A stretch of 64,000 nucleotides of DNA from Escherichia coli (GCF_045037415.1 NZ_CP173438.1); one strand, 5' to 3'. Shown: positions 15,357 through 22,228, counted from the first letter of the stretch. The notes: generated by a model from the sequence alone, not told the origin. Numbers and translations are program-made.

Positions 15357-15779
15357 ATGAAAACAAACACGTCAGATTTCACAATAACTATTTCAAAAAA
15401 TGACCAAGCATTAATTGATAACCTGAAATACCTTGCGGAAAAACATAATAACGGACGAATTGCAATTAATTTACGACACATCACAGGAGTAACAATTGTA
15501 ACCAGTTACTGGCATCTATATCTAATCGCTAAATCAGTACTTGAAAACAAAGATTCTGTTGTCAATGGAAGAGATATAGATACTCTTCCTGCACAAATCA
15601 AACCGATAGCCTATCAATTGCGTAATCGTTTTAAAAATGAAGGTGGGATTATATTTGACTTTCCCGCAGCTGTAGCCGTGAGCTTCTCTCGGGGGGATAT
15701 ACTTCACTCATTTCGTTTTGCTCTATCAGGTGACGAGACATTATGGCAGCTAGAAGATGCCGGGAGCAGCCCGGCATAA
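15357..15779 (+). CDS. Hypothetical protein, AT-rich cargo gene
   Basis: ATG at 15357 (MKTNTSDFTITISKNDQALIDNLKYLAEKH...), about 140 aa; visibly lower GC than neighbours; no motif recognised. Confidence 0.45.
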   Translation: MKTNTSDFTITISKNDQALIDNLKYLAEKHNNGRIAINLRHITGVTIVTSYWHLYLIAKSVLENKDSVVNGRDIDTLPAQIKPIAYQLRNRFKNEGGIIFDFPAAVAVSFSRGDILHSFRFALSGDETLWQLEDAGSSPA

Positions 15780-15785
15780 ATCAAA

Positions 15786-15977
15786 TTAAAAATCAACCAG
15801 TTGTGTGACAGGTGGGTATTTACGCTGAATTTTGTCAGTTACTAACGCCAGTAATATATGAATCTCTGTGTTTAATGCGTCTTTATCACCCGTCGTTTTT
15901 ACCCTGGGAGGGTTAATGTTATCCAGAGCAGCACTAAGTTCACTCAACAAATTAACAACTTTTTTATCTTCTGACAT
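15786..15977 (-). CDS. Hypothetical small protein (63 aa), convergent with the preceding gene
   Basis: ATG at 15977 preceded by RBS aagagg; MSEDKKVVNLLSELSAALDNINPPRVKTTGDKDAL... Confidence 0.4.
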   Translation of the reverse strand: MSEDKKVVNLLSELSAALDNINPPRVKTTGDKDALNTEIHILLALVTDKIQRKYPPVTQLVDF

Positions 15978-16114
15978 GAAAACCTCTTAACAATTTAATT
16001 AAACATAAGCCAGGACCTGAACCGGCCAGTCCAAGTCCTAGACACACAAAAAAAATACCACAAATCAATACAAGGTGACACGAGTACACCTTACCGAAGG
16101 TACAGAGTTTTAAT

Positions 16115-16765: not shown

Positions 16766-17008
16766 ATGGGCAAAGAATATAAAACTCTCATTAACAAAGC
16801 ACTTGAGCGTTTTTATTTTCGCTTAAGTGCATCAGGCGCTCATGCTGAACGTGCAGCCCGTGACTCATTGACCAGGGCAATCCGGAGTCTGTATGACGTG
16901 GCTTTTTACGCTGATGATCTGGATGCACTTAACGAACTTTCCGAGCTGATCTGTGCCGCAGAATGCGGGGAACATATTGAACCGTATAAGCTGGGGAATA
17001 TCGCATGA
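16766..17008 (+). CDS. Hypothetical phage early protein
   Basis: ATG 16766 (MGKEYKTLINKALERFYFRLSASGAHAERAARD...), 80 aa. Confidence 0.4.
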   Translation: MGKEYKTLINKALERFYFRLSASGAHAERAARDSLTRAIRSLYDVAFYADDLDALNELSELICAAECGEHIEPYKLGNIA

Positions 17009-17118
17009 GTATATTTATGTCATGGATTGTTCTGATTATTTCAGTGGTCTGCGCAATTGGCATTGTGCGAATTATTCATTCAGTAAAAAAGATTGAACGT
17101 TTTTTCACTGGTGAATAA
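17005..17118 (+). CDS. Small hydrophobic peptide (37 aa, single TM)
   Basis: ATGA overlap with the preceding stop; MSIFMSWIVLIISVVCAIGIVRIIHSVKKIERFFTGE; below the ORF-track length cut-off. Confidence 0.3.
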   Translation: MSIFMSWIVLIISVVCAIGIVRIIHSVKKIERFFTGE

Positions 17119-17211
17119 CGATACAAATAAAACATCAAATTAAATAAGAAAACGTGAAAACCATCCGTATTAACGGAGGTATTCGCACACGCAAATAACG
17201 GAGATACAAAA

Positions 17212-17622
17212 ATGCACGCAAAAGAAGAAGGTATCATCAGAGCACTGAAAGAAATTTCAAAGACAGAAAACGAAGTAGCGAAAAAAGCCATAGCAAATAA
17301 TCATATGGACGTCGCAACCCACACACTGATAGTCGCAAGAGTCACGGCAGAAGCAGCCGAAATTATCGCAAAACAGGATGCTGAACTGGCGGTTCTCAGA
17401 ACACAACCAGTCACCGGACTGGATTTGTCTAACACCGGACGCCTTATTTACACAATTGGCTCGGAGCTACAGCGATACACCATTATCGCCGGGTTACAGG
17501 ATAAATACCTGATCACTCCTCACCCCATAAGGGAATCAGAAATTCTGACAAATCTCCGCCTGATAGAGCGCTCTCAAGTCGCATTCATTGATGACGCACA
17601 GTGCACCGTATTTAACGCATAG
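17212..17622 (+). CDS. Hypothetical phage early protein
   Basis: 136-aa ORF with upstream aacggaga RBS-like sequence. Confidence 0.45.
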   Translation: MHAKEEGIIRALKEISKTENEVAKKAIANNHMDVATHTLIVARVTAEAAEIIAKQDAELAVLRTQPVTGLDLSNTGRLIYTIGSELQRYTIIAGLQDKYLITPHPIRESEILTNLRLIERSQVAFIDDAQCTVFNA

Positions 17623-17645: not shown

Positions 17646-17849
17646 ATGGCAATTAAGCATTTTCCCGTCGTTCGCTTTACCTCCAGAGGGCGCGAATACG
17701 AGGTCGACGAACGCCTGATTACCACTATCGACAAACATCGTTCGGAAAAGGATGCACACCACATCTACCTCACTGACGGCACTTACTTCTGCGCCACTAA
17801 TGTGGCGCGGGTAAACCTTATCCGACAGGTACAGGAGCCACGCAGATGA
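17646..17849 (+). CDS. Hypothetical phage early protein
   Basis: 67-aa ORF with upstream RBS aaaggggg; ATGA-coupled to the next gene. Confidence 0.4.
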   Translation: MAIKHFPVVRFTSRGREYEVDERLITTIDKHRSEKDAHHIYLTDGTYFCATNVARVNLIRQVQEPRR

Positions 17850-18408: not shown

Positions 18409-18730
18409 GAAACCAGAGCATGCACACACAAAAAAACCGCTTGCCATGCCGCAATCAGTCAGGTTACATTTCCGCTGCACCTCATAAAACGGGTGCCGGG
18501 TTTCGCAGCCTGCTGACTACACAAGCGCACAACCGCGCCAGCGGTTTTTTTGTGCGTACTGTATTGCCACGTTTTTTTCGCGTCAGAATTATGGCGGGGC
18601 GTACGGGGCCGACTTCGGTCGGGCCGGGTTCTTGTGTAGCCGGTACTGCGAACCTCGTACGTCTCGCCACCCACAGTTTCGCAGCTCTGGATGGTGAGTT
18701 TTCACAACTTACTACACAAGGGGCCACACC

Positions 18731-18961
18731 ATGGCAAACCGCAAACAGCACCGCGCTATCGCGGAGCGTCGTCACATCCAGACTGAAATCAACCGCAGAC
18801 TTTCCCGCGCATCACGCGTCGCGCAAATCATGCACATCAATATGCTGCATGAGCGCAGCCACGCACTATCAAACATTTATTCCGCCTCTGTTTTCAGCTA
18901 TCTGGCGGATGATCTGCACGAGCTTCAACAGCTCATCCAGCAGCAAAACAAACTCCATTAA
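18731..18961 (+). CDS. Hypothetical phage early protein
   Basis: 76-aa ORF after a 300-bp structured noncoding stretch. Confidence 0.35.
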   Translation: MANRKQHRAIAERRHIQTEINRRLSRASRVAQIMHINMLHERSHALSNIYSASVFSYLADDLHELQQLIQQQNKLH

Positions 18962-19033
18962 TTCCTGTTCCGGGCCTTTCCTGCACCTTGCGGCGGGAGG
19001 CCTTCGCACATCTGTAACAAGAGGATTGCCGCA

Positions 19034-19399
19034 ATGATTCTCGCCAACGACTTTCTTGAATACCTGCTCAATACAGAACGTGATCTTGCCGCTCGCGTGC
19101 GTGATCGTTATGACATGTACCTGAAATCCCTGCCTGTACCGCAGCTCGCTGACGGAAAGATTGTTATTGATGGTCGCTACATGATTGACAGCCACGAGGG
19201 AAATTACAGGCTTTACCGCATTGAAGGTGGCACCCCGTCCGTTATTGGCATTTACCAGCGCCCATCCTCTGCAATCGTCGATGTGATTGCCGACAGCATC
19301 CGCATCACACATCGCCATGCCGACACAGAAGACACCGTGCTGGAAATTCAGCGGCTGGCTACAGTCTGCCGCGACACCCTGAATGGCATGACGAAGTAA
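19034..19399 (+). CDS. Hypothetical phage early protein, immediately upstream of gene A
   Basis: 121-aa ORF; position is analogous to P2 B or the orf80-83 group. Confidence 0.4.
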   Translation: MILANDFLEYLLNTERDLAARVRDRYDMYLKSLPVPQLADGKIVIDGRYMIDSHEGNYRLYRIEGGTPSVIGIYQRPSSAIVDVIADSIRITHRHADTEDTVLEIQRLATVCRDTLNGMTK

Positions 19400-19405
19400 A
19401 TCACT

Positions 19406-22228
19406 ATGACGGCAGAGTACCTCAGGGACTGGCAACAACCGCGCCACGCAGTGGGGCGTGAAGGAACGGGGATCCCCGCTCCTGAATCCGCGCTTTCCTC
19501 CTGGCTGGATGCCTACCGGGCAGAGAACGAGCGCCGCCAGGAAATGGCTGATGCGGCGTTCTCAGCCACGCCGCTGGGCAACCTGATTAATAAAAGCCTG
19601 GACGCACAGGAAAAACAGGACAAAACCATCACACTGGCAGGAGACGCCAGAAAACAGGCACGTGGCGCGGTGGATGAAGCCATGGCCTCGCTGCGCCTGC
19701 TGCCGTCCTATCTGCGCGATCCGCTTATTCGCCACCTCTCCTTCCTGCGCAAAAAACAGGAAGCCGATCGCCGGAAAGGCAAAAAGAGCTGGCAGGCGGA
19801 ACGCTATGCACGCGGAACCCTGCGCAAAATATTCGAACGTCTGGATAGCACTGACGGACGCTGGCTGACACCGGGTTATCGCTCCCTTGCCGGACGCGAA
19901 CGCCTGGACGATTTGCTTTACCTGCCGCAGCTCAACAAACACCAGATACAGACGCTGGCCACCATGACGGCGGCGATGTTCAGCAGCACCTTCGAAAAAC
20001 TCTGCGATGGCTTTGGCGCGACCGATGGCGAGCTGACCATGGATGTAACCCTGAAGGCGTATCAGATGCTGGCCCGCATGGCGTTACACCTGCACGCCAT
20101 GCCTCCACATTATGACGCACTGACAACAGACAAAGACCGGAGGAACGAACCGGACACGGAGCTGCTGCCGGGCGCAATCCTTCGCCTGACCTGTGCGGAA
20201 TGGTGGAAACGCAAACTGTGGCTGTTACGTTGCGAGTGGAGAGAAGAACAACTCCGCGCCGCCTGTCTGGTTTCCAGAAAAACATCACCCTATCTGAGCC
20301 AGGACGCGTTAAGCGAGTTTCGCGCACAGCGCGAGAAAACACGCGATTTCCTGAAAAGTTTCATGCTGGAAAATGAAGACGGGTTCACGATTGATCTCGA
20401 GACAGTGTATTACGCGGGAGTAAGTAACCCGGTTCACCGTAAGGCAGAAATGATGGCCACCATGAAGGGACTGGAACTTCTGGCCGAAGCCCGTGGCGAC
20501 AAAGCGGTGTTTCTGACTGTCACCTGCCCGTCAAAATACCACGCCACAACGGAGAACGGTCATCCGAATCCCAAATGGAACGGGGCCACAATGCGCGACT
20601 CCAGCGATTACCTGGTTAACACGTTTTTTGCGGCGGTCCGCAAAAAACTGAACCGCGACGGCCTGCGCTGGTATGGCATCCGCACGGTGGAGCCTCATCA
20701 TGACGGCACCGTGCACTGGCATATGATGGTCTTTGCACATCCGGAAGAAATCGACACCATTGTGTCCCATACCCGCGATATTGCCATTCAGGAAGACCGC
20801 CACGAGCTGGGCAATGATATTACTCCGCGCTTTAAGGTGGAGTATGTCGACGGCTCAAAAGGCACGCCAACCAGCTACATCGCCACCTACATCGGAAAGA
20901 ACCTGGACAGCCGCGCCGTGGATGGCATCGACCCGAAAACGGGCAAGCCACGCGTGGACCACGAAACCGGAAAATCAATGGCCGAGAGCGTGGAGCGCGC
21001 CATCGGCTGGGCGCGCCTTCACCGGGTCCGTCAGTTCCAGTTCTTTGGCATCCCCTCCCGTCAGGTGTGGCGTGAACTGCGCCGCCTTGCCAGCCAGATG
21101 GCACGCAATCCGGAAGGCCCGCAACGGCTGAAAGATGATGCAATGGATGCGGTACTCGCTGCCGCCGATGCCGGGTGTTTTGCCACCTACATTGAAAAAC
21201 AGGGTGGCGTGCTTGTTCCACGCAAGGACTACCTGATTCGCACCGCCTACGACCTCGCAGATGAGCTGAACGATTACGGCGAACAGAGCGTACAGATTTA
21301 CGGGATCTGGTCACCACTCATCGGGGAATCCTCCCGTGTGTGCACGCATCCGGATAACTGGAAGCTGGTAAGACGTAAACCGGAAGCGGAAGACAGCGCC
21401 CGCGAAAATGGTTTTGACCTTCAGGGCGGCCCTGCCGCCCCTTGGACTCGTGGCAATAACTGTCCCCGTGTACAGGAAACGGACAACAACGGGACAGAAC
21501 AGCCGGAAGAACGGCCAGCACCGTGGCCGCAGCTCCCTGACGGCGTTGAAGTGAACGAATGGATGCGCTCACTGAAACGACACGAACGCCGGGCGCTGAT
21601 GCGTTCGCTTCGTGACAAACAGGCAAAAAACAGCAGCGATGAAATGCAGAGCTGGACACAGAGCCGCAAACAGCAGCGGCCTTTGCCTGATAACCACGAA
21701 TTACTCGCTAAAGAATGGCGGGAGTCTGCTGAATCTCTCGGCCTGCATATCGGTGAACAACAGATGCAGCACCTGTTACGGGGCGGCAGTCTGTACGTTG
21801 ACGGCAGCATCATTGCACCGCAGGGATTTGAAATTGTACGCAAACCGGATACCCGCCCGGACAGCCGAATCACGCAGCTCTGGCAGCGCCTGAGCCGTAA
21901 TCATGGCGTAAGCAGCACGGAGATCCGCCATAACCCGGTCGCCAGCTATCTGGCACAGCTGGGGGCATCAGACCCTGAAGCCGCCGCACGCCTGGCATCC
22001 ACACTTCAGCAGGGCCAGAACACCATGAAAACACCCGTTACCGTGCTTTCTGACATGCTGCGCGCCATCCGCGACGCAGAGCACGCACAGAGAATCAGTG
22101 AAACCACTGAACGCGCCAGCCGCAAAGCAGACCTGCTGCGGGGTGGCCTGACCAGTGGAAACAAAAAACAGACAGAAACGGGACTTACGAATCCCGTAAA
22201 TGAGCAAAAAACGCGCAGCGATATATGA
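19406..22228 (+). CDS. P2 gpA-type rolling-circle replication initiation endonuclease
   Basis: 940 aa; HxH metal motif in TVEPHHDGTVHWHMMVFAHPEE, typical of gpA/gene II Rep proteins; longer than P2 A as I recall it (about 760 aa). Confidence 0.8.
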   Translation: MTAEYLRDWQQPRHAVGREGTGIPAPESALSSWLDAYRAENERRQEMADAAFSATPLGNLINKSLDAQEKQDKTITLAGDARKQARGAVDEAMASLRLLPSYLRDPLIRHLSFLRKKQEADRRKGKKSWQAERYARGTLRKIFERLDSTDGRWLTPGYRSLAGRERLDDLLYLPQLNKHQIQTLATMTAAMFSSTFEKLCDGFGATDGELTMDVTLKAYQMLARMALHLHAMPPHYDALTTDKDRRNEPDTELLPGAILRLTCAEWWKRKLWLLRCEWREEQLRAACLVSRKTSPYLSQDALSEFRAQREKTRDFLKSFMLENEDGFTIDLETVYYAGVSNPVHRKAEMMATMKGLELLAEARGDKAVFLTVTCPSKYHATTENGHPNPKWNGATMRDSSDYLVNTFFAAVRKKLNRDGLRWYGIRTVEPHHDGTVHWHMMVFAHPEEIDTIVSHTRDIAIQEDRHELGNDITPRFKVEYVDGSKGTPTSYIATYIGKNLDSRAVDGIDPKTGKPRVDHETGKSMAESVERAIGWARLHRVRQFQFFGIPSRQVWRELRRLASQMARNPEGPQRLKDDAMDAVLAAADAGCFATYIEKQGGVLVPRKDYLIRTAYDLADELNDYGEQSVQIYGIWSPLIGESSRVCTHPDNWKLVRRKPEAEDSARENGFDLQGGPAAPWTRGNNCPRVQETDNNGTEQPEERPAPWPQLPDGVEVNEWMRSLKRHERRALMRSLRDKQAKNSSDEMQSWTQSRKQQRPLPDNHELLAKEWRESAESLGLHIGEQQMQHLLRGGSLYVDGSIIAPQGFEIVRKPDTRPDSRITQLWQRLSRNHGVSSTEIRHNPVASYLAQLGASDPEAAARLASTLQQGQNTMKTPVTVLSDMLRAIRDAEHAQRISETTERASRKADLLRGGLTSGNKKQTETGLTNPVNEQKTRSDI

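Follow-up and report, generated by a model that had tools for sequence, protein, structure and literature searches.

A short open reading frame (ORF) in the early region of a prophage, whose start codon overlaps the stop codon of its upstream neighbour, raises the question of whether so small a frame is a gene at all and, if it is, what its product might do for the phage. We considered one such ORF in a 64,000-nucleotide stretch of Escherichia coli DNA (GCF_045037415.1, NZ_CP173438.1), which we refer to as the window. The ORF lies on the plus strand at positions 17005–17118 and consists of 37 codons, starting with ATG, followed by a TAA stop; its DNA reads ATGAGT...GGTGAATAA and its translation is MSIFMSWIVLIISVVCAIGIVRIIHSVKKIERFFTGE. 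The gene immediately upstream (16766–17008, plus strand) encodes an 80-residue protein that matches the Pfam family PF15946 over its full length (E = 2.8e-54), belongs to phrog_2549 and is named a DUF4754 family protein in RefSeq. The preliminary description had claimed a 37-codon ORF translationally coupled to this gene, and both the sequence and the coupling are as it described them: the ATG of the peptide ORF (17005–17007) overlaps the TGA of the DUF4754 gene (17006–17008) to give ATGA, within the junction …GCATGAGT…. A purine stretch resembling a Shine–Dalgarno (SD) sequence, GGGGAA, can be read on the plus strand at 16993–16998, that is 7–12 nucleotides before the ATG and within the last codons of DUF4754, and is weak in the allele found in the window. 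The surrounding 6-kb stretch is overlapped by 91 ORFs of at least 25 residues, and a 37-codon ORF is by itself within chance expectation, so the case for a gene must rest on comparative evidence.

Relatives for this comparison were taken from the contigs of DUF4754 proteins down to 76% identity, together with relatives of the peptide from a HMMER scan of 1.84 billion proteins. In every relative locus examined the peptide ORF follows DUF4754 directly and with the same ATGA overlap. The alleles MSVFLSWVILIISVLMAIGIMRIIEALKNIESLFTGEERRK, MNILISWLILILAIICAVGTMRIINGIKTIESLFTGDKRHK and MSIFMSWVVLVLAIIFAIGIVKIITVIKAIEALFTGDKHHK, among the deepest, are 49–65% identical to the window peptide, whereas the DUF4754 proteins encoded beside them are only 26–40% identical to that of the window. 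Over the deep alleles as a whole the peptide, at 44–65% identity, is the better conserved of the two neighbours. The SD-like stretch is kept or strengthened in the diverged alleles, which carry GAGGAG, AAGGGG, GAGGTGG or AGGAGGA at 7–13 nucleotides before the ATG despite the changed codons at the end of DUF4754.

Substitutions among the alleles fall as expected of a coding sequence read in the proposed frame. For 34 in-frame DNA alleles, which encode 27 protein alleles, pN/pS is 0.31 in the frame of the ORF, compared to 1.15 and 1.45 in the other two sense frames and 1.01, 0.44 and 1.30 in the three antisense frames; a set of 11 diverged alleles gives 0.36 in the ORF frame. Variable columns in the 34 alleles are distributed as 23, 10 and 32 over the first, second and third codon positions (chi-square p = 0.0035). 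Codons of the tail motif change synonymously (ATT/ATC, GAA/GAG, GGT/GGC), and substitutions in the transmembrane (TM) segment are conservative, exchanging I, L, V, M and A. The low value of one antisense frame could be thought to reflect a gene on the opposite strand, where two ORFs share that frame (16929–17063 and 17076–17291, minus strand), and we rejected this candidate as an echo of the sense frame: the value of 0.44 arises because the wobble positions of the two frames coincide, the antisense frame is interrupted by a stop, and most alleles lack the ATG at 17063, reading GGGATT and not GGCATT.

Conserved coupling with its SD-like stretch, the coding pattern of substitution and retention in diverged relatives together lift the ORF above chance. 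We conclude, from these comparisons of sequence, that it is very probably a protein-coding gene under purifying selection, and with the same degree of confidence we infer that it is translated. Absence of conservation in relatives had been named beforehand as one finding that would speak against a gene; the ORF is instead conserved under purifying selection and is kept in every diverged relative examined.

The family to which the peptide belongs is narrow but populous. A profile search over 5.8 billion clusters gave about 150 clusters, from Escherichia (E. coli, E. albertii and E. fergusonii) with a few records from Salmonella, Shigella and Citrobacter, and the HMMER scan of 1.84 billion proteins, together with a family alignment led by a 41-residue member, returned the same Escherichia family and nothing else. 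When contigs were scanned with the DUF4754 alignment, only two loci were found, one in E. albertii and the other on a contig of an E. coli phage that had been wrongly binned into a Collinsella metagenome-assembled genome, so either the module of DUF4754 and peptide is restricted to the genus or the patterns applied for the peptide were not broad enough. The peptide occurs in two main lengths, 37 or 41 residues, which are fixed in most clusters. The longer form has a basic end such as KRRK or KRHK, and the shorter form, which includes the window allele, has TAA at the position where the longer has AAA, GAA, GAG or AAG. The diverged set shows no variation at M1, S6, W7, L10, G19, I23, I24, K28, I30, E31 or F34.

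Not all copies are intact. Among 80 loci from IMG/VR, 71 are intact, eight have a frameshifted tail that extends the peptide to 45 residues and one has an early frameshift. Two homopolymer runs, both on the plus strand and both prone to slippage, make the gene mutationally fragile. The first is a run of six A (17085–17090), which has contracted to five in one locus (L083) to give a 45-residue allele with ...KRLNAFSL...; the second is a run of six T (17100–17105), where a one-base contraction gives the 45-residue ...ERFSL(V/A)NN... found in phage PhiR44_2 and in three further loci (L044, L048 and L039). Some of the frameshift variants may be sequencing errors. Isolated phages are among those affected: in phage Chuche (sample source "mud near tree") the peptide is cut to 30 residues, and PhiR44_2 (host E. 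coli C) has the 45-residue form. In phage 503458 both DUF4754 and the peptide are disrupted. The altered C-termini of Chuche and PhiR44_2 imply that at least the tail of the peptide is dispensable for phage viability, and with roughly 10% of alleles frameshifted there, the selection that conserves the tail motif is incomplete.

These lesions raise the possibility that there is no functional protein at all, and that the frame is kept open for another reason, such as a spacer along which ribosomes reach a downstream hairpin (described below), or is a decaying remnant, its hydrophobicity being incidental. The slip-prone runs, the damaged tenth of the loci with its one early frameshift and the viable phages with truncated or altered tails would all fit. 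Decay or spacing alone sits poorly, however, with a pN/pS of 0.31, with synonymous change in the tail motif and conservative change in the TM segment, with a peptide that outlasts DUF4754 in identity (44–65% as against 26–40%) and with an SD-like stretch kept through the turnover of the sequence around it. Intact alleles are moreover found on thousands of contigs, compared to tens for damaged ones. We regard the absence of a functional protein as highly improbable.

Contrary to the preliminary description, which had considered the ORF unannotated and below the thresholds typical of ORF calling, it is well represented in public records. Identical DNA is annotated in E. coli genomes by RefSeq (PGAP) as WP_000021715.1, a hypothetical protein, and the identical ORF also appears as URC09552.1, a "putative membrane protein". 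In phage P88 the peptide is covered by gp07 (YP_009113050.1, "membrane protein"), and its UniRef name is "Prophage membrane protein". At least 1000 contigs carry the exact peptide sequence, and the same holds for several sister alleles. In large assembly collections the peptide is routinely called by their gene callers; PGAP, Prodigal-type callers and several phage submitters all call it, and the contigs on which it is recorded number in the thousands. Some phage records, among them Shae_phiSM and NC_049344, lack it. Literature searches found no mention of the peptide gene, of DUF4754 or of the accessions. In practical terms the gene call is sound, gene callers treat the ORF unevenly, and it is an ordinary small membrane ORF of a phage.

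That the product is a single-pass peptide of the inner membrane is supported, as first proposed for a membrane peptide, by a predicted hydrophobic stretch and charge asymmetry. Codons 3–21 (17011–17067, plus strand) encode a predicted TM helix, IFMSWIVLIISVVCAIGIV, and this segment is the best 19-mer in all six diverged alleles considered, with a mean Kyte–Doolittle hydropathy of 2.7–2.9 and a summed Hessa dG of −2.9 to −4.1 kcal/mol. Within it S6, W7, L10 and G19 are invariant. The N-terminal flank in these six alleles consists of two uncharged residues, with no K or R, and the C-terminal flank has four to six. Codons 22–37 (17068–17115, plus strand) encode a basic, amphipathic juxtamembrane tail, RIIHSVKKIERFFTGE, which is predicted to be cytoplasmic; its hydrophobic moment is 1.0–1.6, compared to 0.2–0.5 for the TM segment, and no change is seen at I23, I24, K28, I30, E31 or F34 in alleles as low as 51% identity. 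By the positive-inside rule the basic flank of a TM helix faces the cytoplasm, and given the charge asymmetry the topology is thus probably N-out/C-in, and the basic, amphipathic helix of the tail would lie at the cytoplasmic face. We consider the product most probably a membrane protein.

The setting of the gene gives further indications of when it would act. The prophage, which adjoins dmsA, is a P2-like one of E. coli and resembles P88 (Xuanwuvirus, Peduoviridae); the region is its early operon. Over the 1.3 kb around the ORF, identity is 100% with vB_EcoM-569R5 and vB_EcoM-705R2, two Escherichia phages, as well as with many chromosomes of E. coli, including ST131, and 85–95% with phage P88, P88_4B11, 520873 and the Citrobacter phage Shae_phiSM; the matching phages are all Peduoviridae and mostly Xuanwuvirus. 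The same stretch is matched in 1365 of 5426 complete E. coli genomes. By public annotation the layout begins with dmsA, int (minus strand) and the C repressor gene (minus strand), followed by cox on the plus strand. After cox come two moron-like genes, DUF4761, a phrog_3800 protein, DUF4754 and the 37-residue ORF, then small genes that vary (wHTH/MarR-like, Ead/Ea22-like and one named "derepression"), and next gpA (19406–22228), which encodes the replication endonuclease. This layout agrees with the earlier placement of the ORF in an early operon, which would be driven by Pe and repressed by C. Morons abound in this mosaic neighbourhood. Similarity to P88 stops at about 17192, just past the conserved hairpin, after which the window has a cassette with a 136-residue phrog_9338 gene and P88 has a 67-residue phrog_3459 gene directly.

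The hairpin in question (17164–17177, plus strand) lies 46 nucleotides past the stop codon of the peptide and has a stem of five base pairs, TCCGT-ATTA-ACGGA, followed by GGTATTC. It is kept in all 14 aligned relatives and, by pattern, in 93 of 106 loci. Its stem occurs in just two forms, TCCGC/GCGGA and TCCGT/ACGGA, which differ by a compensatory double change (with a U·G variant in two loci), as against nine variants of the loop, and the local fold has an energy of −15.8 kcal/mol (z = −4.1). Similar elements are annotated in the better known relatives. In phage 186 the terminator tR1 follows fil and dhr and is one among several regional terminators that are anti-terminated in early lytic growth, and P2 has a putative rho-independent terminator after gene B; those of both phages have a short GC stem and then GGGC(A)TTCTTTT. 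The P88-type sequences GCGGA-GGGCTTCAC and GCGGA-GGTATTCGC resemble them, differing in that the U-tract is poor. By this analogy the hairpin is probably the P88-type counterpart of the intra-operon terminator of P2 and 186 (tR1-like), or a pause site, a reading that would make the peptide gene the last of the promoter-proximal block.

We found no promoter belonging to the peptide gene itself above the expectation from shuffled sequence, and a position within a C-repressed early operon without such a promoter argues for a role in lytic growth and not in the lysogen. This bears on the possibility that the peptide is a superinfection-exclusion or anti-phage membrane protein, one that hinders competing phages by blocking the entry of their DNA or a receptor or transport component on which they depend. 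Other small phage membrane proteins do so, for instance T4 Imm and Sp and HK97 gp15, and a mosaic, moron-rich neighbourhood is a place where one could be looked for. Such a protein would be wanted in the lysogen, however, where expression from this operon is not expected; defence-system models (PADLOC) gave no family for the peptide, and the gene belongs to the conserved core of its block and is not cargo of a variable hotspot. We think an exclusion function very unlikely.

A second possibility is a membrane-damaging toxin, similar to type I toxins or to holins, that oligomerises and dissipates the proton-motive force, either in early host shutdown or in the timing of lysis. A short TM helix with a charged C-terminal tail in 37 residues is the architecture of the Fst and Ldr type, and the small, conserved or nearly conserved residues S13, A17 and G19 could mediate packing of helices. 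Known toxins were nonetheless absent from the matches. Comparison of the peptide to Pfam, PHROG, NCBIfam and PADLOC placed it in no family; the best Pfam match was PET117 (E = 0.025), below the cut-off for that family, and there was no Pfam match to Hok, Ldr, TisB, Ibs, ShoB or Fst. A sequence search of the PDB likewise gave no match. On the RNA side, Rfam had nothing within 17000–17250 at E up to 1, and thus no antisense RNA family, and promoter-like sites on the minus strand are no commoner than in shuffles; the minus-strand candidate at 17260–17233 falls in a cassette that is absent from P88. We therefore rejected a type I toxin–antitoxin system, for which there is neither an antisense RNA or promoter signal nor a toxin family, and whose supposed toxin would be internal to an operon and coupled through ATGA in every relative, with no stand-alone locus. 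A holin or pinholin would be looked for in a lysis cassette, beside endolysin or spanin genes, and the gene lies outside one, between cox and gpA. Early depolarisation would besides hurt the replication of the phage itself. Direct membrane damage is in our view an improbable function.

Both possibilities are to be set against what we take to be the best overall explanation, namely that the peptide is a non-essential accessory host-takeover factor, a single-pass protein of the inner membrane encoded in the early operon, to which we assign a probability of about 0.6. Under this explanation the gene would be transcribed from the early lytic promoter Pe and be silent in the lysogen for as long as the C repressor is bound. 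Ribosomes finishing DUF4754 would re-initiate at the ATG of the peptide by means of the ATGA overlap and the SD-like stretch. Residues 3–21 would insert as a TM helix, sending the two-residue N-terminus to the periplasm, and the basic amphipathic tail (R22...K28-x-I-E-x-x-F-T-G) would rest against the membrane from the cytoplasmic side. Early in lytic growth, the conserved face of the TM helix and the juxtamembrane motif would then bind a host inner-membrane protein through helix–helix contacts, and the most likely consequence would be a block of division or of envelope growth. The conservation of S6, W7, S13/A13, A17 and G19 together with the juxtamembrane motif suggests a specific helix–helix partner rather than bulk damage to the membrane. 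By this account the family would occur only among P2-type prophages of the P88 kind (Xuanwuvirus), in Escherichia and its close relatives.

The invariable company of DUF4754 allows a different division of labour, in which the peptide is a membrane anchor or subunit of a soluble, helical DUF4754, coupling sets a fixed ratio of the two, and the activity resides in DUF4754 or in the complex. ATGA coupling and adjacency persist in every locus even where DUF4754 has fallen to 26–40% identity, both genes are damaged together in phage 503458, and the conserved cytoplasmic tail motif could be a docking site. We modelled a fusion of DUF4754 to the peptide through a (GGGGS)5 linker with AF2, using a paired alignment of 13 rows, and took from it the fold of each part: DUF4754 is predicted to be all-helical (pLDDT about 90) and residues 1–34 of the peptide to form one continuous helix (pLDDT about 75). 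The matches from a Foldseek search of the PDB were generic helical bundles and designed proteins, with E above 0.001 in every case. Against an anchor, the two genes reassort. One locus (L023) pairs a DUF4754 that is 83% identical to that of the window with the peptide allele of another (L022), whose own DUF4754 is 40% identical, and at least 18 different peptide alleles accompany one and the same DUF4754 sequence. This reassortment argues against tight co-evolution of DUF4754 and the peptide, and an anchoring role seems to us unlikely.

The preferred explanation, an accessory factor in host takeover, can be made more specific at the cost of certainty, and the target is its least secure part. 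We tentatively propose that the peptide founds a genus-restricted family of early phage membrane proteins that target a host inner-membrane machine (divisome, transporter or protease), alone or with DUF4754, by way of S6, W7, L10, A17, G19 and the motif K-x-I-E-x-x-F-T-G, and that it is a functional counterpart of Fil and Dhr of phage 186. Takeover of division or of the envelope specifically would, by analogy, be the single likeliest outcome, though a doubtful one when taken alone; the suggestion in the preliminary description of a toxin or division inhibitor is plausible by the positional analogy with fil and dhr. If a host machine is indeed targeted, the deep allelic divergence within E. coli (44–65% identity) would reflect co-evolution with that target. 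A defined host target would add a small-protein tool for probing the inner-membrane machinery, from a prophage that is very common, and would give a first handle on the DUF4761–DUF4754 block of P88-type phages. As it stands, the peptide is an uncharacterised, genus-restricted small phage membrane peptide that is very common in E. coli.

Known systems offer several points of comparison. The closest by position are Fil and Dhr of phage 186, annotated respectively as a 75-residue protein whose "overexpression blocks cell division" and a 66-residue protein that "inhibits host DNA replication". Theirs are small non-essential genes of a P2-like phage, in the promoter-proximal early block just before tR1, a position comparable to that of the peptide gene before its tR1-like hairpin. 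They differ from the peptide in having no N-terminal TM helix and no homology to it: BLASTP gave a match of only six residues, at the C-terminus of Fil (IVRIIH/IIRIVH, E = 0.089), which we rejected as evidence of relationship. The neighbours also differ, being apl and cII in 186 and cox, DUF4761 and DUF4754 around the peptide. The positional analogy is thus weak, the two blocks not being homologous gene for gene.

Inhibition of host cytokinesis by small proteins made early by phages is well recognised, with lambda Kil and T7 Gp0.4 as examples, neither of them needed for phage growth (PMC11323111). These two are soluble, have no TM helix and target FtsZ in the cytoplasm, and neither has sequence similarity to the peptide. 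What the peptide gene would have in common with such division inhibitors is being a small gene of an early operon that the phage can do without, non-essentiality being inferred here from the phages with altered tails and from the early frameshift. The type I toxins (Fst, Ldr and Hok) resemble the peptide in size and in combining a TM helix with a charged tail, whereas the peptide is without an antisense RNA partner, is coupled within an operon and matches none of their families.

Parallels in architecture are SPO1 gp56, Caulobacter SidA and E. coli Blr, single-pass proteins of about 30–80 residues whose TM helices make contacts with late division proteins. A patch of Blr, GWIVLVVSV, recalls SWIVLIISV in the peptide; we rejected homology, since hhalign gave a probability of 30% over 12 TM columns and Blr was absent from the HMMER matches among 1.84 billion proteins, and the resemblance is one of composition. 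All three share with the peptide a small size and a single membrane pass, which for the peptide is predicted, and one of them, SPO1 gp56, is like the proposed function of the peptide an early phage gene for host takeover.

The peptide gene (37 codons, single transmembrane segment; 17005-17118, +) of this P88-like prophage is followed in the intergenic region by a conserved hairpin pattern with a 5-bp stem (17164-17177; context 17150-17195), of consensus TCCG(C/T)-N4-(G/A)CGGA and then GG(G/T)(C/A)TTC, which is present in 93 of the 106 loci compared. The stem occurs in two compensatory forms and the loop in nine variants; on the minus strand the hairpin is followed by TGGTTTTCAC. A mosaic junction coincides exactly with this element, and it is there that differing downstream gene cassettes attach. 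For instance, the 136-aa phrog_9338 gene (17212-17622, +), which is of unknown function in PHROG and has weak, sub-threshold similarity to the DGR protein Avd, is found in the window and in the related phage Shae_phiSM; P88 lacks it, and in that phage the hairpin is immediately succeeded by the phrog_3459 gene of 67 aa (17646-17849 in the window). The presence or absence of phrog_9338 is a cassette swap at this conserved junction.

Within the last third of the peptide ORF lie an A6 run (17085-17090) and a T6 run (17100-17105), which give rise to recurrent +1-frame alleles encoding a 45-aa peptide, seen in several genetic backgrounds and in roughly 10% of the IMG/VR loci. These alleles may be real slippage variants, or else assembly or sequencing errors. 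The module of DUF4754, the gene directly 5′ of the peptide gene, also appears at 99% identity in a 4-kb contig labelled "MAG: Collinsella sp." (L106; JAIJJM010000267.1), almost certainly an E. coli prophage fragment mis-binned into a Collinsella assembly.

Further upstream, a moron-like insertion (15357-16110) separates cox from DUF4761; it is missing from P88, and other genes take its place in relatives. It holds a 140-aa ORF (15357-15779, +; coordinates from public annotation) and a 63-aa ORF on the minus strand (15786-15977), with a 14-bp-stem hairpin (16010-16041) in the upstream region of the latter. Downstream, Rfam matches to C4 antisense RNA (18587-18674, +; 83 bits), isrK (18477-18551, +; 65 bits) and, weakly, the c4-a1b1 target (18464-18516, +) form a P1/P7-type antirepressor-immunity RNA module (18464-18674) within a P2-like early operon, just upstream of a 76-aa "derepression protein" ORF (18731-18961). 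All three matches are overlapped by a 205-aa ORF (18420-19037), a hypothetical protein or transcriptional regulator in some records, which may be a spurious call.

Among known systems, the hairpin at the cassette junction resembles annotated intra-operon terminators, namely that of P2 after gene B and tR1 of phage 186, though unlike these its U-tract is poor.
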